From an uncultured bacterium (GTDB lineage: Bacteria > Spirochaetota > B62-G9 > DRHN01), in assembly GCA_965603595.1 (NCBI GenBank), contig CBFDDP010000001.1, forward strand, positions 17,751-81,750: a stretch of DNA of 64,000 nucleotides, read 5' to 3'. Shown here piece after piece: positions 13,582 through 33,652 of the stretch. The notes under the pieces are model-generated. The model was not told the DNA's origin. It did not search any database and saw nothing but the letters and a program-made list of their open reading frames with translations. A program made the position numbers and the translations under genes. Within the stretch, counting starts at the first letter, position 1; every line of letters starts with the position of its first letter.

Positions 13582-16500
13582 TTAGAAATAGATCTCCATC
13601 TTGAGGCCAAGCTCGAAACCAAGGGACGTCAGCAGGTTTCCGCTGCTGTAGTCGGGGGTTACCTTCTCTTCAACACCAAACTGGAACCTGGAAAAGGCGG
13701 TGAATATAAGGCTGTCGGTGATTTCATACTCCGTTTCATGTTCCAGGGTCAGGCGCAGGGGGATATTACTGAATCCTTCCGACTGCTCCCTCTCAGTAAT
13801 GGTATAAACATTCTCAATCGTCAGAACCTCCAGATTCTTGATTGAACTTTTGAACTCCGGATCCGGTTTCACAAAGAGAAATCCCTTTTTCGGGAATACC
13901 TCCCAGAGATAACTCAGCCTGAATTCGTTTTCGATCGTATCCGATGGCGGTACGAGAGCTACACTGGAATCGCTATCGGGAACACCAGGAATGAGTGCAT
14001 AGTCCGAGTCACCTTTATGCTGCCTCGTTCTGGTATACTCGACCTGGTCATATATCTTCAGGCCCTGAAACTCGGTACGCAGGGAGTTGTACTCGGTTGT
14101 CAGGGAGAAGCTGTTATTCAGTACTTTGGTATCAAACTGCCTTTCACCCTCATAATCAAAGGTCATCACTATGTTGTTCTTGAAGTATTTCTCGGCATGG
14201 GAGAGGGGTACGTTGTACTGGATGGAGGCTGTCCAGCCCCTGCTCTGCCTGTATGATTCCCCCTCCCTGCGTGTTTCCCCGTTTATGCCAAGGGTAACCC
14301 AACCTGGTATAAACCAACGGTCATACCCAAAGGCCACATCGAGAATATAACTGTTGAAGAGGGAGTTCACAGAGTTACCTGATATTTCAGAGCTGCCCTT
14401 GTAAATGTTCACGGCATCGTAATCCTTATCCCTTCCCCCGGGATGCATATAGTAAAAGGGGGGCATGAACATATACCTGTAGCTCTCCAGATACATATCT
14501 CTCCGGGTGAGAGATTCCGATACAGTCTTATAGTCACCCCTGAACTCGCGGCGCATCAGGGGAGTGACCTCGATCCTATCGATTCCAAGAAAGTAAAAGG
14601 GAATGGCCATCTCGAAATCGTGATTGTACACCGTATCCCGGTCTGCTTCATCAAAGGAGAAGTTCTTCTGAGAGTAATCAGTATCAAAGATCAGGTTGAA
14701 TCCCACAATCTTCATGAGGGGTATACTGATGTCCAACCCGTATCCGTCGGTTGTGGAAGCAAGTGTGCCGTTTTCGATGGTCTCGCCCACAGGCGTGAAA
14801 AGTGTGCTCAGGCGGTTGATATATGCACTGCCCCAGCTCTCAGCTTCAGGAACAGAGAGTCCGGTGTACTGCTGGTTCCGTAATAAATAGGTTGCTATGA
14901 TGTTACTGTTCCAGCTGAAGGATAGATCAAACCGGTCCTGCTGGTCCACAACGGCATCCTGCTCCCGCGTGGGATCCAGTGATTGCGAGGGTATGGTCTC
15001 ATAGGTGTCAGTGTAGAGCCAGAAACGATTGAAGGTGTACGCCTGGGACAAACCGAAGGGAAAATCGACCTGTTCTGAGAAAAGCAGCGAATCGTCATAG
15101 GCGGTCTGGTCATAGTGCTGATAATCGGTGGGATTGAGATCTATCTCTTTGCTGTTCGTTACATATCTGTCATAGGAATGTCTGATAGAGGGTATGTATG
15201 CATTATCGAATGCGAGCTCCAGGGTATGGGACTGCTGTGTACGATAGTCATCGGTGCTCAAATCGCCGGGTAAATCCTCCTCGTTTCTAATGGTGGTGAT
15301 GTCCTCCCGGCTCAGGTACACCTCTGTACCGAGCACTTTCAACAGATCAATGTCCAGACCCGTATAGAGACGGTCGTTCCGCTCATCAGTACTGGTATAG
15401 AACTTCCCCTCCTGTCGTTCAAATCCAAGCAGCAGCGATGGATTGCTTATGAGGGGAAACTCTGCAACCGAGAGCACATCTCCCTTATAGCCGAAGGTCC
15501 CCTCAGTGATAAAGGCCGTGTCAAAATACCCTTCACTGTTTCGCACGAACCATTCATCGAGCCAGATTTCCAGGGGCTGAGTTACATCACCGCTGTTGGC
15601 ATAGAAACCGAACTGAATCTCGGCGAGCCTGTTAAAAATTCGGAGATCACCCGATTTCGTCATGTTGATAACATCCTGGCCATTCAACTCTACCGTATAG
15701 GGCGATTTCAGATGGACATCGATGCGATTCCATCCCTGTACGATCTGTGATCCCGGGATGACAGTACGAAGCTCCTCATTCTGGCTGCTCACGAACGAGA
15801 GTGTGAAGTCCAAATTGGACGGCACCGTCTCGGATTCCGGAAGGTAGAGAAACATGGAGTAGTCGCCGTAGAAAGAGATATCCATTGGAATGGCGAAACG
15901 GCGGGCGACCGCTGCTTCCTCTCCCTGATCGAGCTGCGTCATTGCAGTGGGGTCAAAATAGACCTTCAGCACCTTCTCGACGAGATTGTTTCGGCTGCGG
16001 TAGGAAGCGTCCCCGTGGAGCTCGTCGTAGAGACCCGGATAATCCTTAGACAGTGCATGGTCATCAACATCGGGGTTCTCGTCCACAGATACTTCGCTGA
16101 TGTTGAGATAATCCTTGGATTCGTTCACCAGGCTCGAACCCGAAAACCAGATCCTGTTGATGACGACCTTACCTGTTACATCCTGAGCAGGAGGCGGATT
16201 AACCGTTGTGACGGTCAGCCGGAGAGCTGCAGCGCTCTGAAATACCTCCGGTTTACTCTCGATCAGGGAGAGTATGTCCACCGATAGATACCTCCAGCCA
16301 CTATTCCCGGTTGAAAACTGTTGTATATAGTCGGTCGTGTCACCCCGTATCAGCACGCCTGTATCAGGGCCTGTATCGAGTATGCCGTTCTTGTTCAGGT
16401 CCTCCGAATCTATGCGGCCGTTACTCGATCCCTCCCTGTCAGTACCGATGACTGTTGGATTCCCGTTCCAGGGTGTGATTGGAAAACCGGCATCATTGAT

Positions 16501-18909
16501 GGTATTCTCACCATCGGGCATGGGGTTCTGTGGGCGGTTATTGTTCAGGTCCTCGTCATACTCCTGAAGAAGCTCGACATAGATCTGTATACTGTCACCA
16601 GAAATATCCATTCCCTCGATGCTCATGTTGAACCGCTCATAGGCGGAGTAATTTGCATTGCTCAGGGGTATGGCAACCGACGCGTAGGGCTCGGTGCTGC
16701 CGGCGGTGAACTCGTAATCAATGACCAGCGAAGTGTCGGTACCACCAGTCGGCTTATCCGCCGCGTTGTAGGGTCCAGCCTTCTCACTGTAGCTGAACAC
16801 CTGATCTGAAGGGATATTCCAGGAAAGGGTCTTGAGCTCCGCGCTCCCAAAGGTTTTGTCTTCCCAGTAGTTCCTGTATAAAACATCGCCACGATCGCTC
16901 AAGCTGAGATCTATAGGAAATGCAGGTAATGATGTTTTAGTTGCCACTATCCAGTCCTGATCGTACAGGCTGATGTCGATTGTGAAATCGTCCCGCTCCA
17001 TGTCTGCGATGATGGCACTGCCGTACACGTTGTTGTTCGTCTGAGAAAAGGCAAACTCCCCATCGAAAATCGCGTAGAGACCCTCCTCATCCTCATCGGT
17101 AGCACCCAGGTTTACCATCACGCTTGTAGCGTTCGTCAGTGCTGCGGTATCCTCGCTTCCCACATCGGGCGCCTCGCGTCCCTTCAAGCCGGTCTCATAG
17201 GCTGTCAGGTTCTGTGCATAGAAAGGACCGTTTTCGTAATAAAATCCCAAAGCAGTGAAGAGGCCCTGCTCACCGGACCCGAAGCCGGTGTACCGGTATG
17301 TCGTGACAATTCTATCCGACGATTTGATCAGGCCAGGGTCAAAGGTGAGCATGCCGAACTCGTAATCGACCGTATAGTACTTCGGATCGAGGAGTACACC
17401 GTTCAGGTAGACCTCCACGCTTCCCGGAACGAGGTTGAAATCGAGGAAGTATATGTCCGTGTTGTAGCTGTATGAGATATGCAGTGTATTGATCGAATCT
17501 TCCGGTAGGGGATCCCCTACCCCACCATATATGGGATTCAAAGGATCAAAGGGATTGTAGACTGGATAGGGTTCAGGACCGGGAAATGGTCTGGGATAGA
17601 ATCCAACTGTGTCCTGGAAGTTGAAAAACAGCACACCCGCACTGGTATCGACCTCAAACTGATCCAATATGCTGTCGTAGTTCCTGTTTATGCCCTTATT
17701 TGCCGTTGCACGCAGCTCAATGTTCACATTGAACAGGGCCTCGCCCTCATACTCGTCCAGAAAATAACCGTTTCTGAGCTCCCAGTAGGAGTTAAAATTG
17801 TTTTTCTGCAGATAGAGGTAGGTGGTGCTTGTGCTTACGTCGAAATAGAAATATTCCGGATAGTTGTTGCTGTTAAAATTGTCTCGAGCCCCAGAGGTAT
17901 CGATGATCGCATCTTGACCGAGTGCAATGGCTCCCACACTCACCCCGCTTTTTTCGTAAGAGATGATAAGCTCCTCGTCATTCAGAAGAGCATTCAACAG
18001 GTAGATGCGGCCGCGTGTGTTGTCGAAGGTGTAATCTCGGCCCCGCGTGAGGAGTGCAAAGTTTTTCTCATCCACCATTACATCAAAAGATCCCGTTGCA
18101 GTCTTATACAACTCCAGCGTATCTTCGTCGATACCGATATCCGGTATAATGAAGAATTGATTTCTCACATATTCCACATCGAGAGCAGCAAACGCGACAT
18201 CGTTTCGCGAACCGCTGAACTCCTTTCTCCCCGACAGTGCATCGTTGAATCGGAGGAGGCCCTCCATGTGCAATTTCTCCCATCCCGCATTTCCCTTCAG
18301 GGCGAAGGAATCGGCATTCCCCTCATCAATCTTCAGGTACCTGCTGTCCTTGATGGCGAGTTCCTTGTTACCGACACTGACTTCCTTGATGAACTCGTCC
18401 TCCTTACCCCTGTACGATACCAAATAGGTATTCCGGTCTCCGCCGAGTTCCTCCTTTTTTCGCTCTGAGTCATAGTCGAATTCAATAAACAGACGGTCGG
18501 CAACAGACCCGGTGAGGAGAATGCGCGATATGAAATCATACCCGAAGCCGTCTGAAATTCCAGCTGTCCCAGCACCTGTGGTGCTACTGTTTCCAAGTGC
18601 AAAATCCTTTCCATAGAACATGTTCAGCTCGAGCTGTCCCTCGAGATTTACCTGTACATAACTGTCATCCTGAAGTTCACCATTGGCGAAGAGACCAGGT
18701 ATTGCAGGTTCATGGTCCCGGTAGGCATTGTACAGTAGAGGGCTCGTGTCCCTGTCCGTTACAAAGGGCAACGTATCCCCTGCATAGGGGCTGTACACGA
18801 TGTTGTAGTAGTCTTCCAGAATGTAGAACCTGGCAGCGGAGAGAGGTGTGGCAATGGTGAGTGTAATGATAAGAAGGGCTAATGCTGTGCCGATCCTGTA
18901 TTTACCCAC
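13582..18909 (-). CDS. giant (1775 aa) secreted protein, predicted outer-membrane beta-barrel/translocon-like, function unknown
   Basis: Signal peptide MGKYRIGTALALLIITLTIATPLSAA. Extremely Y/D/N/T/G/S-rich. No enzymatic motif. C-terminus ..GLKMEIYF with terminal Phe. First gene of a three-gene OMP operon. Confidence 0.65.
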   Translation of the reverse strand: MGKYRIGTALALLIITLTIATPLSAARFYILEDYYNIVYSPYAGDTLPFVTDRDTSPLLYNAYRDHEPAIPGLFANGELQDDSYVQVNLEGQLELNMFYGKDFALGNSSTTGAGTAGISDGFGYDFISRILLTGSVADRLFIEFDYDSERKKEELGGDRNTYLVSYRGKEDEFIKEVSVGNKELAIKDSRYLKIDEGNADSFALKGNAGWEKLHMEGLLRFNDALSGRKEFSGSRNDVAFAALDVEYVRNQFFIIPDIGIDEDTLELYKTATGSFDVMVDEKNFALLTRGRDYTFDNTRGRIYLLNALLNDEELIISYEKSGVSVGAIALGQDAIIDTSGARDNFNSNNYPEYFYFDVSTSTTYLYLQKNNFNSYWELRNGYFLDEYEGEALFNVNIELRATANKGINRNYDSILDQFEVDTSAGVLFFNFQDTVGFYPRPFPGPEPYPVYNPFDPLNPIYGGVGDPLPEDSINTLHISYSYNTDIYFLDFNLVPGSVEVYLNGVLLDPKYYTVDYEFGMLTFDPGLIKSSDRIVTTYRYTGFGSGEQGLFTALGFYYENGPFYAQNLTAYETGLKGREAPDVGSEDTAALTNATSVMVNLGATDEDEEGLYAIFDGEFAFSQTNNNVYGSAIIADMERDDFTIDISLYDQDWIVATKTSLPAFPIDLSLSDRGDVLYRNYWEDKTFGSAELKTLSWNIPSDQVFSYSEKAGPYNAADKPTGGTDTSLVIDYEFTAGSTEPYASVAIPLSNANYSAYERFNMSIEGMDISGDSIQIYVELLQEYDEDLNNNRPQNPMPDGENTINDAGFPITPWNGNPTVIGTDREGSSNGRIDSEDLNKNGILDTGPDTGVLIRGDTTDYIQQFSTGNSGWRYLSVDILSLIESKPEVFQSAAALRLTVTTVNPPPAQDVTGKVVINRIWFSGSSLVNESKDYLNISEVSVDENPDVDDHALSKDYPGLYDELHGDASYRSRNNLVEKVLKVYFDPTAMTQLDQGEEAAVARRFAIPMDISFYGDYSMFLYLPESETVPSNLDFTLSFVSSQNEELRTVIPGSQIVQGWNRIDVHLKSPYTVELNGQDVINMTKSGDLRIFNRLAEIQFGFYANSGDVTQPLEIWLDEWFVRNSEGYFDTAFITEGTFGYKGDVLSVAEFPLISNPSLLLGFERQEGKFYTSTDERNDRLYTGLDIDLLKVLGTEVYLSREDITTIRNEEDLPGDLSTDDYRTQQSHTLELAFDNAYIPSIRHSYDRYVTNSKEIDLNPTDYQHYDQTAYDDSLLFSEQVDFPFGLSQAYTFNRFWLYTDTYETIPSQSLDPTREQDAVVDQQDRFDLSFSWNSNIIATYLLRNQQYTGLSVPEAESWGSAYINRLSTLFTPVGETIENGTLASTTDGYGLDISIPLMKIVGFNLIFDTDYSQKNFSFDEADRDTVYNHDFEMAIPFYFLGIDRIEVTPLMRREFRGDYKTVSESLTRRDMYLESYRYMFMPPFYYMHPGGRDKDYDAVNIYKGSSEISGNSVNSLFNSYILDVAFGYDRWFIPGWVTLGINGETRREGESYRQSRGWTASIQYNVPLSHAEKYFKNNIVMTFDYEGERQFDTKVLNNSFSLTTEYNSLRTEFQGLKIYDQVEYTRTRQHKGDSDYALIPGVPDSDSSVALVPPSDTIENEFRLSYLWEVFPKKGFLFVKPDPEFKSSIKNLEVLTIENVYTITEREQSEGFSNIPLRLTLEHETEYEITDSLIFTAFSRFQFGVEEKVTPDYSSGNLLTSLGFELGLKMEIYF

Positions 18910-21237: not shown

Positions 21238-21395
21238 TGCACGATCTTCCTTAGCTTAATAAATACACCGCTCACCATTCATGACCGGTTCATCTACTGT
21301 ATCGACCAGTTAGAAAAATCTATTACCCCAACTTTTTATTGTCCCCCCAAAATGCGTATACTATATTTAAGGCAAAAAAATGATCCGGAGGGGAA

Positions 21396-21722
21396 ATGGC
21401 GGAGATATTGAACACAACGGATGCCGAGTTTTCAGATACGGTCAGTGAATCGGATAAGCTGGTAGTCGTCGATATGTGGGCCGAGTGGTGCGGCCCCTGC
21501 AAGATGATGGAACCTGTTCTCGAGGAGATTGCAGAAGAATACAGTGACAAACTCAAGGTTGTGAAGCTCAATATTGATCAGAATCAGGATACCCCACTCA
21601 AATTCGGTGTAATGAATATACCTACACTCATATTCTTCCAGAATGGAAAGGAAATCGATCGGGTTATAGGCGCATTCCCCAAAAAGCAGCTCTTAAACAG
21701 AATTAAACCTCACCTCACCTAG
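21396..21722 (+). CDS. trxA: thioredoxin
   Basis: 108 aa with WCGPC active site (WAEWCGPCKMM). Confidence 0.92.
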   Translation: MAEILNTTDAEFSDTVSESDKLVVVDMWAEWCGPCKMMEPVLEEIAEEYSDKLKVVKLNIDQNQDTPLKFGVMNIPTLIFFQNGKEIDRVIGAFPKKQLLNRIKPHLT

Positions 21723-21838
21723 CCCTGCATGTGCTGTAGATGGGATATGAAGACAGGGTCACATGGGTCTACTACCTCATACCAACGTGGGCCCGACTAA
21801 CCCTTGCATTACAGACAGTAACCTTGTATCTTCATAGT

Positions 21839-24800
21839 ATGTTTGCCCTCGGACTCGACGTCGGTTCCACAACAGTAAAAGCGGTGCTGTTGGATGATGA
21901 AAATATGATTCGTTGGCAGCGGTACGAGCGGCACCGAACGAGGCAACTCGACAAGGTCATGGATTTTTTCGCTCTAATCCGTGAAAACCTTGGAGACCCG
22001 GACTTACATGTATTCACAACCGGGTCCGGTGGAAAACAGGTGGCCAGGCTCATGGGTGTCCGTCACTACCAGGAAGTAAATGCCCTCGGTACCGCTGTCG
22101 AGCACCTGCACCAAAACATTGCGTCTGTATTTGAGCTGGGCGGTCAGGACTCCAAGTATATCACGTGGCGAGGAAGTAACGGCAGGTTCGTCGCCATGAA
22201 CGACCGCTGTGCAGGAGGAACGGGTGCAACGATCGACCGAATACTCCTGAAACTTTGCATCACCCAAAGGAGTCTTCTCGACATAGCATATGATCCGCAG
22301 ATGCTATACCCCGTTGCCGGTAAATGCGGTGTCTTCGCAGAAACAGACCTCAACAGCCTCCAGAAGCAGGGAGTAGCGACCGAAGCTTTACTGCTCTCTC
22401 TCTTCCAAGCTATTGTCGAGCAGAACCTCACCGTCCTTGCACGGGGGCATATGCCTGTACCACCCCTGCTGCTCCTGGGCGGTCCCAATGTCTTTTTTCC
22501 CGCACTGCGGGGAACATGGCAGGCCCGTCTTGAATCCCTCTGGCAAGAGCGGGATATAGCGTTCGATAGAGACGCAGTACGCGTCCCTCACAATGCCCTG
22601 TATTACGGTGCCCTGGGTACAGCGCTTCTTGGCGCATCCATAGAATCCGGGGAACCAGCAATAGGATGCAGTACCTTCATGGATCGAATCGCAGAAAGCA
22701 GAGAAAAGGGAAATCCTGAAGGAACGCTAAAATCCGGCGGCCCGCCTCTGTTGCACACAGAAGAGGAGAGAAGGCATTTCTCAGGAACATACATGAGCAG
22801 GCCCCATAGCGGCACATACCCTCCTGCCGGGAAGGAGCTGCACGTCTACATGGGAATTGACGGTGGTTCCACTTCCACAAAGGGCGTCATTCTCGACACG
22901 CGTGAGAACGTGATGGAGACGGCATACCTGATATCGCAGGGCAATCCGGTCGACGATACTCGGTCCATACTTAAAGAGCTGCACGAAAAGGTCCGGCAGC
23001 GGGGCGTGAAACTCAATGTACGAGGTATCGGTTTTACCGGTTATGCCAAGGACCTCCTGAGCGCCGTTTTTGGCGGTGATACTGCCGTGGTGGAAACCGT
23101 AGCCCACACGCTGGGAGCACTCAAATACTACCCGGGGTGCGACGTTGTCTGTGATGTAGGCGGGCAGGATATTAAGATCATACTTCTTAAAAACGGTGCA
23201 ATCAGAGACTTCAGGCTCAACACCCAGTGTTCGGCGGGAAACGGATACTATCTGCAGTCAACGGCCGAACGGTTCGGGTACACAGTCGACGAGTATGCTG
23301 AGGCGGCCTTCACAGCCGGTACCATACCTGAGTTCAATTTCGGGTGTGCCGTGTTTCTCGAGGCTGATATCGTGAACTTCCAGCAGCTTGGCTGGAAGCC
23401 CGAAGAAATCATGGCGGGCCTTGCACAGGTGCTCCCCCTCAACGTGTGGCTGTATGTGGTGCGGGAACCCAATCTGAGCAGATTGGGAAGGCATTTCGTG
23501 CTCCAGGGCGGCACGCACAACAACCTCGCTGTCGTTAAAGCGCAGCAGGACTTTATCAAATCAAGGGTGCGAGACGCACAGATACACCTACATCCCTACA
23601 AGGAAGCTGCCGGTGCCATTGGCGCTGCAATTGAAGCGAGAAGGACCCTCTCATCAAAAATCTATACCGAATCGGGGAAGATGACCTCTCATATACCCGC
23701 ATCCAGCTTTATTGGTTTCGATTCCATCGACCTCGTTCAATACAGTGTCGAGAAGAACGAAGATACCAGGTGCACACGCTGCGGGAATCGATGTATGAGA
23801 ACCTTCATATCCGTTAGTGCGGGTGATTACAGAAACAGCCATATCATTGCAAACTGCGAGCGGGGAGCAGAGACTGATGAGAATAGAAAGTCTGCAGCGG
23901 GAAGCCCCAGCTCTCGTGAGGATGCACCTCATTTTGTGCATCTCTCGAACAGGATGATGTTCGCTACCCGTCCAGACAGGACACCGGCAGAGAGATCTTC
24001 ATCTTCATATCACATCAGGCGAAACAAACTGCTCGAGAAAGCCGTCATTGGCATACCGCGTGTGCTTGGCATATATTCCACAGGCCTCTTCTTCAGAAGT
24101 TACTTTGAAGCCCTTGGGGCGGGAAAAATTCTGTTTTCCGGGTATACGACACCAGAACTGTACAGGAAAACTGCAGGGAGGGGTTCAATTGACCCCTGCT
24201 TCCCTTCAAAGATCGCCATTGCCCATGTATATGACCTTATGAGCAGGGATGCTGTTACCCATATTTTCTTTCCCTGTATCCGCATGACAAGGGGCGAAAT
24301 ATATGGGGCACCCTATCACTGGGCCTGTACGGCACTCGCCGCGACACCGGAATCGGTCAAGGCAGCATTCACCCTGAATGGAAACGAGTTTCATGATCGA
24401 GGCATTCACTATGTCGACCCTGTCTGTGATATGGCCGAATGGGATGTATTCGAACGGCAGCTATACAGTTCGCTGCACCCCCTCTTCCGCATATCGAAGG
24501 GTGAGAACCGCAGGGCCATGGACACTGCCTTGCGCCTATGGGAAAGCTCTCTCGCAAACCTGCAGGCAAGGGCCGAGCGCGTTATTCTCGACCTCGAACA
24601 GAAATCCGGGATCGGGATCGTACTTCTCGGAAGACCCTATCACAATGACCCCGGAGTTAACCACGGTATCCTTGATGCCCTGAACAGTCATGGCTATCCC
24701 CTGTTCACCATCGAGAGCCTTCCGAGGTCCGGGCAGCTGGTAGAACGGATTTTTGAGCAGGAGTCTGAAAGGGGACATCCCATGGATATCCGTGACCTGT

Positions 24801-25114
24801 GGATGAAGTGCTACAGCGAGAACACCTCTCTGAAGATATGGGCGGCCAAATTCGTGTCACGCCACCCCAATCTCATTGCCCTTGATCTCTCTTCATTCCG
24901 CTGCGGACACGACGCCCCGCTCTACTCACTACTCGACGACCTGTTCAGCCAGTCGGCCTCACCGTATTTTACCTTTCATGAGATCGACGAAAACAGACCG
25001 GAGAGCTCTATCAGACTGCGTGTGGAAAGCATTCACTACTTTCTGCAGCGCTATCGGGAAGAGCTGTCGCAGAGAGCGGAGGGTTCATGGCAACGGTCAT
25101 TGTCAGTGGTTTGA
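21839..25114 (+). CDS. CoA-substrate-specific enzyme activase-type protein: two BadF/BadG/BcrA/BcrD (ASKHA) ATPase modules plus a conserved C-terminal domain. Likely start MFALGLDVGST at 21839; ORF-track start is 21740.
   Basis: Two DxGST ATPase phosphate-1 motifs (LGLDVGSTTVKAV and MGIDGGSTSTKGV). Each is followed by a GGQD box (ELGGQDSKYI; DVGGQDIKII). C-terminal 400 aa conserved in the activase-of-unknown-substrate family. Confidence 0.75.
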   Translation: MFALGLDVGSTTVKAVLLDDENMIRWQRYERHRTRQLDKVMDFFALIRENLGDPDLHVFTTGSGGKQVARLMGVRHYQEVNALGTAVEHLHQNIASVFELGGQDSKYITWRGSNGRFVAMNDRCAGGTGATIDRILLKLCITQRSLLDIAYDPQMLYPVAGKCGVFAETDLNSLQKQGVATEALLLSLFQAIVEQNLTVLARGHMPVPPLLLLGGPNVFFPALRGTWQARLESLWQERDIAFDRDAVRVPHNALYYGALGTALLGASIESGEPAIGCSTFMDRIAESREKGNPEGTLKSGGPPLLHTEEERRHFSGTYMSRPHSGTYPPAGKELHVYMGIDGGSTSTKGVILDTRENVMETAYLISQGNPVDDTRSILKELHEKVRQRGVKLNVRGIGFTGYAKDLLSAVFGGDTAVVETVAHTLGALKYYPGCDVVCDVGGQDIKIILLKNGAIRDFRLNTQCSAGNGYYLQSTAERFGYTVDEYAEAAFTAGTIPEFNFGCAVFLEADIVNFQQLGWKPEEIMAGLAQVLPLNVWLYVVREPNLSRLGRHFVLQGGTHNNLAVVKAQQDFIKSRVRDAQIHLHPYKEAAGAIGAAIEARRTLSSKIYTESGKMTSHIPASSFIGFDSIDLVQYSVEKNEDTRCTRCGNRCMRTFISVSAGDYRNSHIIANCERGAETDENRKSAAGSPSSREDAPHFVHLSNRMMFATRPDRTPAERSSSSYHIRRNKLLEKAVIGIPRVLGIYSTGLFFRSYFEALGAGKILFSGYTTPELYRKTAGRGSIDPCFPSKIAIAHVYDLMSRDAVTHIFFPCIRMTRGEIYGAPYHWACTALAATPESVKAAFTLNGNEFHDRGIHYVDPVCDMAEWDVFERQLYSSLHPLFRISKGENRRAMDTALRLWESSLANLQARAERVILDLEQKSGIGIVLLGRPYHNDPGVNHGILDALNSHGYPLFTIESLPRSGQLVERIFEQESERGHPMDIRDLWMKCYSENTSLKIWAAKFVSRHPNLIALDLSSFRCGHDAPLYSLLDDLFSQSASPYFTFHEIDENRPESSIRLRVESIHYFLQRYREELSQRAEGSWQRSLSVV

Positions 25115-26466
25115 CCAGAGCCCACGAAACCCTTTTAGAGGGCCTGTTCAGGTTTCTCGGCCAGGACGTTGTTCGTCTCCCCGAGCCTGACGGTGAAGCA
25201 CTCAAGATAGGCAGGATATACTGCAACAGGGGACAGTGCAACCCTGTGTACTACACTGCCGGCAATCTCATCCGATTCCTCCAGTGTCTCAGGACTTCCG
25301 GGGAGAAGGATATAGAGAAGAAATATTACTACCTGACAGCCGGAGCCTGTGGCCCCTGCAGATTCGGCATGTATGAGATTGAATACCGCAAGGCTCTCCA
25401 CGATGCCGGGTTTCCAGGGTTTAAAGTTGTGGGTGTACAGCAGAATGCGGCCCTGGTACAGGACCTGCACAATCTGGGATTCCGCTTCGAAAAGAGGCAT
25501 TTGAGCCGGTTCATCAACGCCATCATTCTCGCAGACCTGCTGAACAACCTCTACTATAAAATTAAACCCTATGAAGTCATACCTGAAAGTGTCGACCGAT
25601 GGCGAAACAGCACACTCGACCTGCTATACGCTGTATTCAGATACAACAGATCCATCACCCCATCACTGAAACAGATCCGAGATACATTCAACAGCCTCGA
25701 GCTCGATTATTTGAGACCGAAACCGAAGGTCAAGATAATCGGAGAAATTTTTTCACACCTCCATGAAGGCGACGCGAGCTACGGCCTACCCTCATGGCTC
25801 GTCGAGGAGGGCGCAGAGCCTGTGGTTGAGCCCCTCAGCAACTGGCTTGAGTACCTCTTCTGGGAAAAGATACAGTTTACCCGGGACCGGGCATTTCGAG
25901 GTAGGCTTAAAGCCCTAAGGAAGATACTTCCTGCCTGGCTGCTTAAGACAAGTATACGTCTGCATTTCGCCTATTTCAGATTCATTCTGAAAAACAGACC
26001 CGATAAACTCGCCCGTCAGCGACAGCTTGCACGATACGCTGCCCCATACTACCATGTCAGGCTTATAGGCGGCGAAGGGCACATGGAGGCAGGAAAGCAT
26101 ATATATGCGGTACGCAAACATCAGGCACACATGGTAATATCCATCAAGCCCTTCAGCTGTATGCCCTCGACGCAGAGTGATGGTGTGCAAACGAAAATTG
26201 CCGAGGACATGAAGGGAAGCCTCTTCGTTTCGGTGGACACCACAGGAGATGCGGAGGTGAATGTGAAGAGCCGCATCCTCATGAAGCTTCAGGTCGCACA
26301 GAAGAGAGCTGAATCCGAGTTCAGAGAAGTCCTGGAGAGGAAAAAACTGACCGAAGCGAGACTGAAGGTGTTGAGGGAGAGGACCCGTCTGCAGTCATTA
26401 CCCATGCGTAAACATCGGCGCAGATACATCGCTACAGCCACACGAGTTCTTACCACACTGGTCTGA
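25087..26466 (+). CDS. 2-hydroxyacyl-CoA dehydratase (HgdB/D-component)-like partner of the activase
   Basis: 459 aa. Cys motif AGACGPCRFG. Overlaps the end of the activase gene, consistent with translational coupling. Confidence 0.6.
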   Translation: MATVIVSGLTRAHETLLEGLFRFLGQDVVRLPEPDGEALKIGRIYCNRGQCNPVYYTAGNLIRFLQCLRTSGEKDIEKKYYYLTAGACGPCRFGMYEIEYRKALHDAGFPGFKVVGVQQNAALVQDLHNLGFRFEKRHLSRFINAIILADLLNNLYYKIKPYEVIPESVDRWRNSTLDLLYAVFRYNRSITPSLKQIRDTFNSLELDYLRPKPKVKIIGEIFSHLHEGDASYGLPSWLVEEGAEPVVEPLSNWLEYLFWEKIQFTRDRAFRGRLKALRKILPAWLLKTSIRLHFAYFRFILKNRPDKLARQRQLARYAAPYYHVRLIGGEGHMEAGKHIYAVRKHQAHMVISIKPFSCMPSTQSDGVQTKIAEDMKGSLFVSVDTTGDAEVNVKSRILMKLQVAQKRAESEFREVLERKKLTEARLKVLRERTRLQSLPMRKHRRRYIATATRVLTTLV

Positions 26467-26488: not shown

Positions 26489-28078
26489 TCATTGGAAAGA
26501 TCTGTACATGGCGCCCTCAAGCTGAAATTCACCATGCTTCATATCTTTCTTCCTTATGGTCGCACCATCGCGCATCATGTGATGCAGCGTCATAAACTCA
26601 CGATCCCGTCCTATACCACACACTGCGCAAAGCCTGCTGCCTCGATAATAGGTTGCGGTGAATTCACCCTTTTCCACATCACCCCTGTACACCACCTTTT
26701 TCACCTTCGGGACATACCCGGCGAATCGTATCAACGTATCATACTGTGTGGTCCAGAAAAAAGGAATTTCGTGGTACGGCTCCATCGAGCCCATCATACA
26801 GCGTGCCGCATGCCGCCCCTGCTGCATGGCCTCAGTCCAGTGCTCGACGCGTCTCCTACCCCCTGTTACAAGATCCTGAACCTGTGCAATGTCGCCTGCC
26901 GCATAGATCCCCTCTGCACTGGTGCACATCTGCTCATTGACCGGGATTGCCCCATTGTCGACAATGCCCGCGTCCTCTAGAAAGTGGACCGCAGGCACGA
27001 TCCCTATGCCGGCAACCACCATGTCCACCTCCAGGGTGCTCTCATCTGAAAGCTCGGCACCCTGCACCCTGCCTTCTCCTCTTAAAGCGGTCACCGACCT
27101 TCCTAGATGAAAGTGTACCCCCCTCTCCTCATGGAGTTTCCGTATCCGCTCCCCGATCCTCTTACCAAACACATCTGCCATCGGAACCTTTTCAGGCGCA
27201 ACAATATATACCTCGATACCCTGCTCCCGTAGGACCACAGCTGTCTCGAGACCGATGAATCCGGCGCCGATGATGAGGGCGCTTTCGACACTCTTTACTG
27301 ATGCAGCGATGGTATCTGCATCTCTGAGGCTGCGAAGGAGGAAGAAATTCTTTAAATCAGTACCGGGTATGACCGGTGTGCGCGGTATTCCCCCCGTGGC
27401 TATGAGCAGTTTATCGTACAGGAGATAATCTCCATCCATAAAGACAATCTGCCGCTCTTCGGGATCTACCTGAGCCACCTGCCGTCCCATCAGCAGTTCA
27501 ATCCTCGTCTGCCTGAAATACTCCTCAAAGGGCAGAAATATGCTGTTTCGGTCAGACTCGCCTGAGAGATAGTCTTTCGACAGCCGGGGCCTGTCATAGG
27601 GCATGTACATTTCTGCGGTGACAATGATCAGACGGCCGTCAAAGCCCTCGCGCCGAAGGGTGACAGCTGCGGCCAATCCTGCAGCACCATTTCCGATGAT
27701 AAGATAAGTACCGCTTTCCCTCCGAAGATGCACTGAGACATCTTCGCGTTTCTTTCTCTTGAGAAGCAGCATACCGTCCTTTGTCTTAGTGTCAAACTGA
27801 AGCAAGTCATGCAGCGCCGGGGGAGATTTACAGGAAGCCGCCCTAAGGTCAAACTGGGAACCATGCCACGGACAGGTCAGTACATGATCAAGAAGCATTC
27901 CCTCCTCGAGAGCCCCACTGTGATGGGTGCATTCCGCCAGCACTGCCGTAACTGCGTCTCCCGAACGATACACAAGCACCCTGTCCTGACCATACACGAA
28001 AAGTCGGGATATTCCCTCTTCGATCTCGGTAAGGGGTGCAATCTCTACCCACTTATTTGCAGGGATCTTTTTCGGCAT
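26489..28078 (-). CDS. FAD/NAD(P)-dependent pyridine nucleotide-disulfide family oxidoreductase with N-terminal Rieske [2Fe-2S] domain
   Basis: Rieske boxes CTHHSGAL ... CPWHGSQF in the first 100 aa. Then GxGxxG Rossmann motifs (LIIGNGAAGLAAA; ALIIGAGFIGLE). Confidence 0.8.
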   Translation of the reverse strand: MPKKIPANKWVEIAPLTEIEEGISRLFVYGQDRVLVYRSGDAVTAVLAECTHHSGALEEGMLLDHVLTCPWHGSQFDLRAASCKSPPALHDLLQFDTKTKDGMLLLKRKKREDVSVHLRRESGTYLIIGNGAAGLAAAVTLRREGFDGRLIIVTAEMYMPYDRPRLSKDYLSGESDRNSIFLPFEEYFRQTRIELLMGRQVAQVDPEERQIVFMDGDYLLYDKLLIATGGIPRTPVIPGTDLKNFFLLRSLRDADTIAASVKSVESALIIGAGFIGLETAVVLREQGIEVYIVAPEKVPMADVFGKRIGERIRKLHEERGVHFHLGRSVTALRGEGRVQGAELSDESTLEVDMVVAGIGIVPAVHFLEDAGIVDNGAIPVNEQMCTSAEGIYAAGDIAQVQDLVTGGRRRVEHWTEAMQQGRHAARCMMGSMEPYHEIPFFWTTQYDTLIRFAGYVPKVKKVVYRGDVEKGEFTATYYRGSRLCAVCGIGRDREFMTLHHMMRDGATIRKKDMKHGEFQLEGAMYRSFQ

Positions 28079-31683: not shown

Positions 31684-32628
31684 TTACAGTATTTTCTGCT
31701 CGTAAAGTGACTCCAGAGTCTCCACTCCCTCCTCGACTGCCCGAGCAGAATTGTCCAGTGCTCTTTTCTCATCCCCGGACAGGGGTAGCTCGAGAATCTT
31801 CCTTACCCCCCCGGCACCGAGAAAGACAGGCACACCCAGAAAGATGTTTTTATAACCATACTCGCCGTTCAGATAAACCGATGCAGGCAGCAGCCTTCGC
31901 TCATCCCTGATGATCGATTCCACCATCTTCACCGTAGAGGCTGCCGGTGCATAGAAGGCGCTCCCCGTCTTCAGGTAATTTATAACCTCAGCCCCTCCCT
32001 TTCTCGTACGCTCGACGAGACGCTCCACGCTCTCCTCGTCGAGAAGTTCATCGATGGGAAAACCGTTTACCGAAGTATACTGTCTCAGGGGGACCATGCT
32101 GTCGCCGTGCCCTCCGAGAACCATGGCCGTCACATCGCCGGTCCACAATCCCAATTCCTCCGCAATGAAGTACCTGAACCTGGTGGAATCGAGAACACCG
32201 GCCTGACCCACAACCCGTGCCGGTTCGAACCCCGTCTCTTTCAGCACCACCATACAGATAACATCCAGGGGATTGGTTACCACAACCACCACAGCGTCGG
32301 GAGCATAGGTGGCGATTGCCGCTGAAGCCTCCTGTGCAATCTTTGCATTGATTTTCAGCAGGTCCATCCGGTCCATACCCGGTTTTCGAGCGACCCCGGC
32401 GGTGAACACGATGACATCCGATCCTGCAATCTCCTTGATATTATTAGTGCCGAATATCCTGACATTGTACTCCCTGAGCGGGGCGGCATGCAGAAAATCT
32501 AGCCCCTTGCTCTGCGGGAACCCCTCCACCACATCCACCATAACGACATCCGCCAGGTTCTTCTCTGCAATATAGTAAACCGCGGTGGCACCCACATTAC
32601 CCGCGCCGATAACCGATACCTTGTTCAT
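31684..32628 (-). CDS. mdh: malate dehydrogenase (LDH-like MDH family)
   Basis: VIGAGNVGATAVYY Rossmann motif. Substrate-loop Arg (GVARKPGMDRMDL) indicates malate specificity. Catalytic GGHGDSM. Confidence 0.85.
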   Translation of the reverse strand: MNKVSVIGAGNVGATAVYYIAEKNLADVVMVDVVEGFPQSKGLDFLHAAPLREYNVRIFGTNNIKEIAGSDVIVFTAGVARKPGMDRMDLLKINAKIAQEASAAIATYAPDAVVVVVTNPLDVICMVVLKETGFEPARVVGQAGVLDSTRFRYFIAEELGLWTGDVTAMVLGGHGDSMVPLRQYTSVNGFPIDELLDEESVERLVERTRKGGAEVINYLKTGSAFYAPAASTVKMVESIIRDERRLLPASVYLNGEYGYKNIFLGVPVFLGAGGVRKILELPLSGDEKRALDNSARAVEEGVETLESLYEQKIL

Positions 32629-33548
32629 CCTGCTCTCTTTTCGAGGAAATCCTTCATCTTTCGCGCCGATTTCCGAAACTGCTCGAGCTCTGACTCCTCC
32701 AGCCTGGGGAGATACACTCTCAGAACGCCCTCTCTGCCGATCATACCCGGTATGCTCATCGCCACATCCTCGACATCATATTCTCCCTGCAACAGCAGGG
32801 AAACGGGAAGCAGGCGTCTCGTATCCCGCACCATGGCGTCCACGAGTTCTGCAACGGATGCGGAAGGAGCGTAGTATGCGGTGGAGCGTCCTGCCATACC
32901 GGCAATGAAATCTCCAGCCCTGCGCGTCTCATCCATAATAGATCCGAACTGCTCGGGAATCATGAGGTTGAGTACAGGGACCCCGGAGACAGTGCAATAG
33001 CGCGGAAGGCCTATCATCTCCTCGTTATGTCTGCCCATAACCAGGGCCGACACGTCCTCAACCGAGACATCGAGGTCGCGGGCCACGGCGTAGCGAAGCC
33101 TGGTCGAGTCGAGAAGTCCGCCGAGCCCAAGCACCGCCTCTCTCGGCAGCCCAGACTCAAGGGTGAACACCGTGGTGAGAAGGTCCACCGGCTCTGTGAC
33201 GATGATGACCTTTACATCGTCCTTCCGCCCCTTCAGGGCCCCCGCAAGCTCCCGTAACACGGTCACATTGTCATTGAGGAGCTCTTCACGCTTCATGCCG
33301 GGTTTTCGAACCGAACCTGCCGAGATAACAATGATGGGGGAGCGGAGCACTTCGTCGAGAGAGTCGGTGCCTGTGATCTTCGTCCGATAAGTCCTCACCG
33401 GTGAAGCTTCCATGAGGTCGAGGGCCTTGCCTGTTGACAGCCCTTCTCTGACATCGTGGAGCAGCACATTGGCTATTCCCTTCTCGGCTATGAAGAATGC
33501 CGTATTCGCCCCGGTATTTCCGCTACCTATGATTCCGACCGTCACCAT
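32625..33548 (-). CDS. second LDH/MDH-family dehydrogenase paralogue with a divergent catalytic loop. ATG at 33548 is 5 nt after the RBS AAGAGGAAG; ORF-track GTG start is at 33569.
   Basis: IIGSGNTGANTAFF Rossmann motif. Substrate-loop Arg (GSVRKPGMKREEL). Catalytic-His region reads MGRHNEEM instead of GGHGDSM. 4-nt overlap with the downstream mdh. Confidence 0.75.
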   Translation of the reverse strand: MVTVGIIGSGNTGANTAFFIAEKGIANVLLHDVREGLSTGKALDLMEASPVRTYRTKITGTDSLDEVLRSPIIVISAGSVRKPGMKREELLNDNVTVLRELAGALKGRKDDVKVIIVTEPVDLLTTVFTLESGLPREAVLGLGGLLDSTRLRYAVARDLDVSVEDVSALVMGRHNEEMIGLPRYCTVSGVPVLNLMIPEQFGSIMDETRRAGDFIAGMAGRSTAYYAPSASVAELVDAMVRDTRRLLPVSLLLQGEYDVEDVAMSIPGMIGREGVLRVYLPRLEESELEQFRKSARKMKDFLEKRAG

Positions 33549-33652
33549 ACTGCTTCCTCTTACTTTCACTATTTAGCTGTTACTCTTAACATACCTCCAG
33601 GCGGATCACATGTGAATTCGCATTATACCTATAATTTCCCCTAATGAGAATT

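Follow-up and report, generated by a model that had tools for sequence, protein, structure and literature searches.

Two overlapping genes (21839-25114 and 25087-26466) within the analyzed DNA stretch of 64,000 nucleotides, hereafter termed the window, probably encode a two-subunit ether-lipid synthase of the PlsA/PlsR-Ger type. The source organism is an uncultured MAG, so that its lipids are predicted purely from genes. An earlier sequence-only reading of the window had described the pair as a radical dehydratase-like system to which no substrate had been assigned. This statement is out of date, because the architecture is that of PlsA/PlsR and Ger, which have been validated by heterologous expression, and the family thus has members with an assigned substrate. 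The pair is an uncharacterized spirochaete representative of a known kind of enzyme and not an orphan radical dehydratase.

PlsA/PlsR is the anaerobic plasmalogen synthase described from Clostridium perfringens in 2021, and Ger is the glycerol ester reductase described from Thermotoga maritima in 2022 (PMC13159169, PMC12838417, PMC9702350, PMC8788747). When expressed in Escherichia coli, PlsA/PlsR gave rise to plasmalogens and Ger to 1-O-alkyl glycerol ethers (PMC13159169, PMC12838417, PMC8788747, PMC9702350). Homologs of Ger have been reported in the Spirochaetes and Aquificae by a search at E ≤ 1e-50 (PMC13159169) and in 19 of 28 Spirochaetota MAGs from the Black Sea (PMC11868695), and the Aquificales are known to produce alkyl glycerol ethers (PMC5552659; bioRxiv 10.1101/2022.04.21.487849). 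Searching the literature for spirochaete plasmalogens brought no useful result.

Gene Organization

All genes described in the sequence-only reading exist at the coordinates given there. The first is a thioredoxin gene of the TrxA type (21396-21722, forward strand; 108 amino acids), which contains the WCGPC motif and matches TIGR01068 with 129.9 bits (cut-off 96.8) and PF00085 with an E-value of 6.7e-34. The following large open reading frame (ORF) on the forward strand is open from position 21740 (21740-25114), and the alignment of homologs sets its start at the ATG at 21839 (MFALGLDVGSTT). The resulting PlsA-like large subunit (21839-25114, forward) has 1,091 amino acids, one fewer than previously counted, and a mass of roughly 120 kDa, the "1.1-kDa" class mentioned earlier being a slip. 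It shares 28 nucleotides with the ORF of the PlsR-like partner (25087-26466, forward; 459 amino acids), which constitutes the second module with the HAD/BCR fold (Red2). The Shine-Dalgarno sequence GGAGG of the partner gene, as read from the sequence, falls within the last codons of the large gene (25078-25082, forward), four bases ahead of the partner's ATG, an arrangement from which translational coupling is predicted. A gene for a Rieske [2Fe-2S] and FAD/NAD(P)H reductase (26489-28078, reverse strand; PF00355, PF07992, PF14759) is convergent with the pair.

A weak promoter-like site, TTGTCC-17-TATATT (21339-21367, forward), was found upstream of the thioredoxin gene by consensus scan only, and may give rise to one transcript comprising the thioredoxin, plsA-like, and plsR-like genes. 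No terminator-like site was found between the thioredoxin gene and the large gene, and the two are probably co-transcribed. An Rfam search of the whole window yielded no match.

The Large Subunit

Of the Pfam families that the sequence-only reading had named for a domain search, PF01869 was found in two stretches of the large protein (255 bits) and PF09989/DUF2229 at amino acids 737-960 (144 bits), but PF06050 was absent from both proteins of the pair, even at E ≤ 10. The proposal of two ATPase modules is confirmed, as the DxGST and GGQD motifs each occur twice. ASKHA ATPase module 1 (21839-22648, forward; amino acids 1 to about 270) carries DVGST, GGQD, and the cysteines C124 and C163, which coincide with the two cluster cysteines when the module is aligned to DCCP-R, MbdQ, and HgdC. 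ASKHA ATPase module 2 (22841-23653, forward; amino acids about 335-605, with the PF01869 match spanning 339-600) carries DGGST, GGQD, C464, and C503, of which C464 aligns with C127 of HgdC, and C503, located in a CTVFAE motif, with the second cluster cysteine. These four cysteines are invariant among the homologs aligned.

Downstream of the ATPase modules lies a putative metal site in a linker (23771-23857, forward). The C-x2-C-x3-C cluster noticed earlier in this region is real (C645, C648, C652) and is joined by a fourth cysteine, C673, 21 residues on. All four are invariant in 41 homologs and are also found in the Aquifex, Brevibacillus, Fusobacterium, Listeria, and Collinsella enzymes. The linker forms a small beta-sheet subdomain in the predicted model (pLDDT 73-85) and, judging from its cysteine pattern, could bind Fe-S or Zn. 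The last part of the protein is the DUF2229 or Red1 module (24047-25048, forward; amino acids about 737-1070), which has the fold of HAD/BCR catalytic subunits and contains the invariant cysteines C787, C830, and C1022. Domains and folds therefore agree with the earlier notion of a fused double activase acting on a two-module, HAD/BCR-like iron-sulfur core, and hence with a low-potential, ATP-driven redox enzyme of the radical type.

The Partner Subunit

Since searches of Pfam, NCBIfam, and PDB sequences with the partner gave no match, its homology had to be established by fold and by fused relatives. The AlphaFold model adopts the fold of 2-hydroxyacyl-CoA dehydratases, benzoyl-CoA reductases, and double-cubane proteins. 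The proposed resemblance to the D-components of 2-hydroxyacyl-CoA dehydratases thus holds for the modeled fold and three to four conserved cysteines but not for PF06050, and it is at this level only that the partner is predicted to be dehydratase-like. Three cysteines (C51, C91, C358) are kept family-wide, whereas C88, which forms a CxxC motif with C91, is particular to the clade of the window and missing from the Listeria, Fusobacterium, and Collinsella enzymes.

Along its whole length, the partner can be aligned to amino acids 1016-1421 of a fused ORF of 1,484 amino acids in Listeria monocytogenes (E = 2e-26). It likewise aligns to the C-terminal end of a fused protein from a metagenome (42% identity, E = 5e-122). 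True fusions were searched with a concatenated query of DUF2229 and the partner, which yielded the proteins P0241 and P0242. Homologs of 1,300-1,400 amino acids had also been considered as fusions with the partner and were rejected by BLAST, their extra length being an unrelated tail. PF09989 has no match in the partner and matches weakly in the PlsR-equivalent regions of Listeria and Fusobacterium. When the alignments of the partner and of the large protein were compared as profiles, no similarity emerged, so that only their structures reveal Red1 and Red2 as paralogs.

Relationship to Ether Lipid-Forming Enzymes

The assignment to the PlsA/PlsR-Ger type is carried by the module order, which is B-B-(Cys4)-DUF2229 with the second core module in the adjoining gene, and by 14 family cysteines (four in the activase, four in the linker, three each in Red1 and Red2) that are common to the Listeria, Collinsella, and Fusobacterium enzymes. 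Partner and large gene stand side by side, in either order, in 76 of 80 related loci from more than 10 phyla. The closest cultured homolog is found in Aquifex aeolicus (Aquificota), with 55 and 50% identity, respectively, for the large subunit and the partner.

The C. perfringens (Q8XL48/Q8XL47), Enterococcus faecalis (Q835P9), T. maritima (AGL49404), and Desulfatibacillum alkenivorans (SHJ90043) proteins lay outside the best 120 matches and the 80 loci. Relatedness was gauged via proxies from Listeria, Collinsella, Fusobacterium, Brevibacillus, and Paraclostridium, taken from chromosomes filed as plasmids in PLSDB, and identities to the PlsA/Ger type are thus proxy values and not values against these five reference accessions. 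They amount to 28% (large subunit) and 25% (partner) for the fused Listeria ORF, which we take to be the plsA orthologue based on a review statement and its architecture, and to 30 and 22% for the split pair of Fusobacterium.

Because identity to the Listeria-type enzyme is this low, a paralogous function is possible, either on a substrate that is neither a lipid nor a CoA compound, such as a DCCP/YjiLM-like reduction of small unsaturated molecules, or in a lipid reaction other than the formation of sn-1 ethers, for example sn-2 etherification. DCCP is among the top fold matches, C88 sets the clade apart, and Bacillota carry extra PlsA homologs whose role is unknown (PMC13274423). However, the other cofactor cysteines and the complete domain order are common to the PlsA type, and DCCP differs in architecture, being homodimeric and having its small reductase as a protein apart. 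Furthermore, the clade is present in ether-lipid producers (Aquificota), and a radical SAM gene resembling the tetraether synthase Tes occurs in seven related loci, in Acidobacteriota beside the pair. We therefore regard a paralogous reductase as improbable. A FabF-like ketoacyl synthase gene is located near the pair in two spirochaete loci, and the window itself has no lipid-biosynthesis gene adjoining the pair.

Neighboring Genes and Electron Supply

The sequence-only reading had proposed thioredoxin and the Rieske/FAD reductase as potential electron donors. Both genes do adjoin the pair, but this linkage is conserved only in a syntenic block of one spirochaete sublineage. Thioredoxin, plsA-like gene, partner, and convergent Rieske-FAD gene remain linked in relatives with identities as low as 59%, and in one locus (L088) the four-gene order is kept despite the loss of the RNase J gene downstream. 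Together with the promoter-like site ahead of the thioredoxin gene and the lack of a detected terminator ahead of the large gene, this would agree with a four-gene unit in which this lineage recruited one or both neighbors as a dedicated chain for electron supply or protection. The same loci, however, keep the flagellar rod genes and a gene for a protein of roughly 1,780 amino acids equally well, so that the linkage is plain synteny, and both neighbors are missing in relatives at 54-56% identity and in 77 loci of other phyla. Thioredoxin is a dithiol protein with a potential of about -270 mV, and archerase [4Fe-4S] clusters are fed by ferredoxin or flavodoxin; neither thioredoxin nor Rieske centers are known to donate electrons to such clusters. 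A recruited four-gene chain is accordingly unlikely even within this lineage, and as conserved electron donors in general the two proteins are ruled out by the neighborhood comparison. Judged from their distribution, they are lineage-specific neighbors and not core parts of the system, since distant relatives and other phyla lack them.

Least probable of all is an HAD- or BCR-like enzyme that acts on a CoA thioester of unknown identity and is activated by its own fused archerase: both core modules do match HadB/C and BzdN/O by fold, similarity to HgdC, HadI, and MbdQ is seen for the activase modules, and database names read "CoA-substrate-specific enzyme activase," but these names are automatic and predate 2021, PF06050 is absent, and the architecture including the Cys4 linker is that of the lipid-acting PlsA type and not of HAD/BCR systems with separate activators. 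Moreover, the 80 + 8 related loci show no recurrent gene for a CoA ligase (the linkage suggested earlier for a co-occurrence check), a CoA transferase, or a 2-hydroxyacid dehydrogenase. Genes for the latter two were also sought in the window, and none was found.

Proposed Mechanism and Product

Enzymes of the PlsA/PlsR-Ger family are oxygen-sensitive, ATP-dependent reductases that convert an ester bond of membrane glycerolipids to an ether bond. For an ether-lipid synthase of this type, we infer every step of the following mechanism. The two fused ASKHA modules would form an intramolecular pseudo-dimer holding one [4Fe-4S] cluster by C124, C163, C464, and C503 across both modules, and this cluster would be reduced by a donor of the ferredoxin or flavodoxin type. 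ATP hydrolysis would then drive a very-low-potential electron into the core of DUF2229 (Red1) and the 459-amino-acid partner (Red2), a putative pseudo-heterodimer comparable to HadBC or BzdNO, whose clusters would be bound by C787/C830/C1022 and C51/(C88)/C91/C358; the linker Cys4 site may serve as a relay or be structural. In the core, a phospholipid would take up two successive electrons and protons at its sn-1 acyl carbonyl, and subsequent loss of water would give a plasmalogen with its vinyl ether bond, which one more reduction would turn into the saturated alkyl ether in enzymes of the Ger type.

According to the literature, vinyl-ether and saturated-ether products cannot be told apart by sequence. 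For the window pair, a saturated alkyl ether is put forward tentatively, with a chance slightly short of even; a vinyl ether is a plausible product of lower probability, and a product of another kind appears unlikely. The clade of the window is far from the Listeria type and nearest to the Aquificota, which produce alkyl glycerol ethers, and we lean slightly toward saturated ethers.

Implications

Bacterial ether lipids are relevant to the "lipid divide" and to palaeoclimate proxies based on brGDGTs, and it is therefore useful to know which lineages are capable of making them. Here, ether lipids are predicted for an uncultured marine spirochaete lineage. The gain is one for annotation: no model of Pfam or NCBIfam recognizes the 459-amino-acid protein that forms the second subunit in this clade, so that domain surveys see only "BBD" and may call the second reduction module missing. 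A sponge-symbiont preprint of 2026 came to this conclusion (10.64898/2026.06.23.733905). In 76 of the 80 related genomes the second module is simply the adjoining gene, and the thioredoxin and Rieske neighbors should not be taken as partners.

A broader joint reading, which we consider rather doubtful, is that the window pair belongs to a separate and widespread clade of two, at times three, genes, which occurs in the Spirochaetota, Aquificota, Acidobacteriota, Nitrospirota, Chloroflexota, Latescibacterota, and Poribacteria, and that bacteria make saturated alkyl glycerol ethers, perhaps along with dialkyl or membrane-spanning ones, mainly by way of this clade and not by the fused Firmicutes-type PlsA. 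As parts of this reading, the partner would have a fully Cys-ligated site (C51/C88/C91/C358), the mechanism would differ in that one cluster serves electron transfer alone and another is catalytic, and thioredoxin or the Rieske-FAD protein might act as a dedicated supply line in this spirochaete lineage.

Comparison with Known Systems

PlsA/PlsR (CPE1194/1195 in C. perfringens; fused PlsA in E. faecalis, Lactococcus, Bifidobacterium, and Listeria) belongs, like the window pair, to the BCR/HAD superfamily and has the same succession of two activase domains, DUF2229 module 1, and module 2. The division into separate genes, pointed out as helpful in the earlier reading, is nothing particular, as the same two-gene split exists in C. 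perfringens and Fusobacterium and a three-gene split in Aquifex. The window pair differs from PlsA/PlsR by the extra partner cysteine C88, and a vinyl-ether product is only putative for its clade. Ger, represented by Tmari_0479 (AGL49404) of T. maritima and SHJ90043 of D. alkenivorans, was compared with the window pair by its described domain architecture. The "BBD" core (two PF01869 and one PF09989) is reported to be kept in all alkyl-ether producers (PMC13159169) and is shared by the window protein, in which both B domains are clear. Validated Ger is a single fused polypeptide with small C-terminal PF06050/PF09989 matches, whereas in the window this part is a separate gene without a Pfam match.

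The 2-hydroxyacyl-CoA dehydratases (HadBC with HadI; HgdAB with HgdC) share with the window core the HAD alpha/beta fold with predicted Cys-ligated [4Fe-4S] clusters. Their activator is a separate homodimer of ~260 amino acids, while that of the window is fused and duplicated, and the window pair further differs from HadBC and HgdAB by the lack of PF06050 and of CoA-related neighbors and by the extra Cys4 linker. Compared to HadC, about 190 extra residues of the partner remain unaligned, including a helical hairpin at amino acids 250-300. Class I benzoyl-CoA reductases (BzdNOPQ, MbdNOPQ) consist of four separate subunits and act on an aromatic CoA thioester, and their gene context of aromatic degradation is not found at the window. 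DCCP (YjiM/YjiL type) has a homodimeric, single-module core and a separate small reductase, DCCP-R, whereas the window pair combines two different core modules with fused ATPases and resembles DCCP in fold only.

Gene organization of the pair

The genes described in the sequence-only reading were confirmed by ORF and domain evidence: a thioredoxin gene (21396-21722, + strand, 108 aa), a large PlsA-like gene, a partner gene (25087-26466, + strand, 459 aa) that overlaps the large ORF by 28 nt, and a Rieske/FAD reductase gene convergent to the pair (26489-28078, - strand, 529 aa). The large ORF is open from 21740 to 25114 (+ strand), and its likely start is the ATG at 21839 (1091 aa), since all 41 aligned homologues have their N-terminus at the MFALGLDVGSTT position. 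The public gene call for a 99% identical protein (P0121) begins at ATG 21740 (1124 aa) and is probably over-extended, because the 33 extra residues, encoded by 21740-21838 (+ strand), are missing from every aligned homologue. A GGAGG at 25078-25082 lies within the 3' end of the large gene, 4 bases upstream of the partner ATG, a placement that points to translational coupling of the partner. By consensus scan only, a promoter-like site lies upstream of the thioredoxin gene, and the stretch from there to the large gene has no terminator-like site.

Judged from sequence, the large gene and the partner gene are parts of one enzyme. Among 80 related loci drawn from species-representative genomes, 76 carry a partner homologue adjoining the large gene in the same orientation; in the remaining four, less than 1 kb of contig is left upstream of the large gene. 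No other neighbour of the large gene recurs widely in this set; in the close spirochaete loci the partner follows the large gene, and in the other phyla it precedes it. In a natural fusion protein (P0241), one chain comprises ATPase module 2 joined to DUF2229 and the partner (identity 47% with the large protein and 42% with the partner, E 5e-122). The Aquifex aeolicus locus (L083 4190-9377, AE000657) is split into three overlapping genes for the two ATPase modules (611 aa), DUF2229 (472 aa), and the partner (458 aa). A TetR-family regulator precedes this three-gene set; a TetR/AcrR-type regulator also adjoins the Collinsella gene (L085 7412-8101), and one has been reported next to plsA in E. 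faecalis (PMC9702350).

Domain composition and predicted fold

According to Pfam, the large protein contains two stretches of PF01869 (BcrAD_BadFG), and its aa 737-960 match PF09989 (DUF2229). Each ATPase module can be aligned to activators of solved structure (HgdC, HadI, MbdQ/P, DCCP-R). In module 2, the residue matching C127 of HgdC is C464, and the one matching the second cluster cysteine is C503; C124 and C163 of module 1 are likewise in register with the cluster cysteines of these activators. The C-x2-C-x3-C cluster noticed earlier in the linker corresponds to C645, C648, and C652 and is followed by a fourth cysteine, C673. Across 41 homologues these four cysteines do not vary, and neither do C787, C830, and C1022 of the DUF2229 region.

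The partner had zero matches among Pfam, NCBIfam, and PDB sequences even at E <= 10, and PF06050, the family proposed for it, was absent at the same threshold. Its C51, C91, and C358 are invariant in 69 homologues, at least 90% of which also conserve C88. For an AlphaFold2 model of the partner (mean pLDDT 84.8, pTM 0.88), the ten best Foldseek PDB matches were all 2-hydroxyisocaproyl-CoA dehydratase subunits, double-cubane cluster protein, or BzdN; the refuting case named in the sequence-only reading, absence of an Fe-S or dehydratase-like fold, did not arise. The DUF2229 module and the partner therefore both have the HAD/BCR catalytic-subunit fold, although profile-profile comparison of these two core modules found no similarity. 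The sequence-only interpretation is upheld in its structural part, a fused archerase with a HAD-like Fe-S core.

Genomic neighborhood

The thioredoxin (108 aa) is of the canonical type (TIGR01068, 129.9 bits against a cut-off of 96.8; WCGPC present). In relatives at 93%, 73%, 66%, 61%, 60%, and 59% identity, the entire block (a gene for ~1780 aa, FlgJ-like, FlgG, FlgF, thioredoxin, large gene, partner, Rieske-FAD) is kept wherever the contig extends far enough. Relatives at 54-56% identity keep the overlapping pair alone, and of 77 loci from other phyla none has either flanking gene. Inherited synteny within one sublineage is therefore, from gene order, the best reading of the adjacency; lineage-specific recruitment of thioredoxin and the Rieske-FAD reductase appears improbable. 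Both had been suggested as potential electron donors, but as general partners of the pair they drop out, being kept beside it in one spirochaete sublineage only.

The nearest genome is the Spirochaetes MAG RS_9_44, whose large protein is 93% identical. Elsewhere, the window carries housekeeping genes: those for an ammonium transporter, glutamine synthetase, RNase J, an M16 peptidase, phosphofructokinase, an MMPL transporter, a membrane protein like Borrelia P13, V-type ATPase subunits, and the flagellar rod, and two tandem overlapping lactate/malate dehydrogenase-family genes (31684-33569, - strand, 314 aa each). The pair has no lipid-synthesis gene beside it in the window, and no Rfam RNA family was found there. 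A 1775-aa ORF without Pfam match (13582-18909, - strand), upstream of the flagellar rod genes, is on positional grounds a real conserved gene, because proteins of 1784-1788 aa occupy the matching position in two related spirochaete contigs (L087, L088).

A conserved ORF of ~91-100 aa lies directly 3' of the PlsA-like gene in 25 of the 80 loci (for example L003 13449-13724, + strand; L009 13541-13819; L029 13703-13978; L076 13435-13710). It encodes zero cysteines and the motif VMFEIYR...YFTEL.DHNKE.EINRALAGEHFYDGFI, has no Pfam or NCBIfam match, and occurs in Acidobacteriota, Latescibacterota, Poribacteria, Planctomycetales, Thermoleophilia, and one Spirochaetia MAG; by tblastn it is not in the window. 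Its product may be a third component.

Predicted product

A text search for DUF2229 led directly to the ether-lipid literature. PlsA/PlsR of Clostridium perfringens, a BCR/HAD-family two-gene operon, converts diacyl lipids to plasmalogens, is a single fused gene in Enterococcus, Lactococcus, and Bifidobacterium, and yields plasmalogens when expressed in E. coli (PMC12838417, PMC9702350). [quoted passage not shown] In E. coli grown anaerobically, the homologue glycerol ester reductase (Ger) of Thermotoga maritima and Desulfatibacillum alkenivorans forms saturated 1-O-alkyl glycerol ethers; it has two PF01869, PF09989, then small C-terminal matches, and homologues are reported from Spirochaetes and Aquificae (PMC13159169). 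Of 28 Black Sea Spirochaetota MAGs, 19 also have Ger homologues (PMC11868695). The claim of a novel system lacking an assigned substrate thus fails, because the substrate class of this family has been assigned since 2021-2022 (PlsA/PlsR, Ger).

According to two papers, PlsA and Ger are indistinguishable by sequence (PMC13274423, PMC11868695). For the window enzyme, a saturated ether is tentatively preferred, a vinyl ether is possible, and another product is rather unlikely. Four features, none decisive, favour the Ger-like saturated ether. Firstly, among cultured organisms Aquifex aeolicus has the closest homologue (55% identity for the large protein, 50% for the partner), and Aquificales produce alkyl glycerol ethers (PMC5552659; 10.1101/2022.04.21.487849). 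Secondly, both activase domains are clearly present, a feature tentatively correlated with alkyl-ether production (PMC13274423). Thirdly, in Blastocatellia and other Acidobacteriota loci the pair adjoins a Tes-like radical SAM gene of ~700 aa (L007 13912-16041, + strand; also L020, L021, L023, L057, L039, L009; 318.8 bits on NF045702, under the model cut-off of 450), which suggests an ether/membrane-spanning lipid gene cluster. Fourthly, in two spirochaete relatives at 55-56% identity a divergent FabF/FabB-type ketoacyl synthase gene (L089 3384-4724; L092 3401-4744; both - strand) holds the place of the window's thioredoxin gene.

Comparison with known systems

The pair was compared with proxies for the validated PlsA and Ger proteins. 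They came from PLSDB, where several records filed as plasmids are in fact whole, nearly unannotated chromosomes and served as the PlsA-type reference source (NZ_CP030101.1, Listeria, 2.9 Mb; NZ_CP084075.1, Fusobacterium, 2.1 Mb; NZ_CP154629.1, Acetoanaerobium, 2.6 Mb). The Listeria monocytogenes record holds a fused 1484-aa ORF, and active plsA/plsR orthologues are stated for Listeria (PMC9702350). The large protein matches aa 9-986 of this ORF (28% identity), and the full-length partner matches aa 1016-1421 (25% identity, E 2e-26). Fusobacterium has the two-gene split of the window (975 + 404 aa). In Listeria and Fusobacterium, the regions equivalent to PlsR match PF09989 only over short stretches and below threshold; the partner of the window type does not match it at all. 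The second subunit of the window clade falls outside Pfam/NCBIfam coverage, a useful by-product for annotation, and 'BBD-only' Ger homologues (two PF01869 + PF09989) in surveys such as 10.64898/2026.06.23.733905 probably have their second module encoded by a neighbouring gene. A joint alignment of window, Aquifex, Brevibacillus, Fusobacterium, Listeria, and Collinsella sequences has four activase, four linker, three DUF2229, and three partner cysteines common to all six, and partner C88 only in the window, Aquifex, and Brevibacillus group. The window pair would represent a distant clade of the ether-lipid family with an invariant Cys4 linker and a clade-specific fourth partner cysteine.
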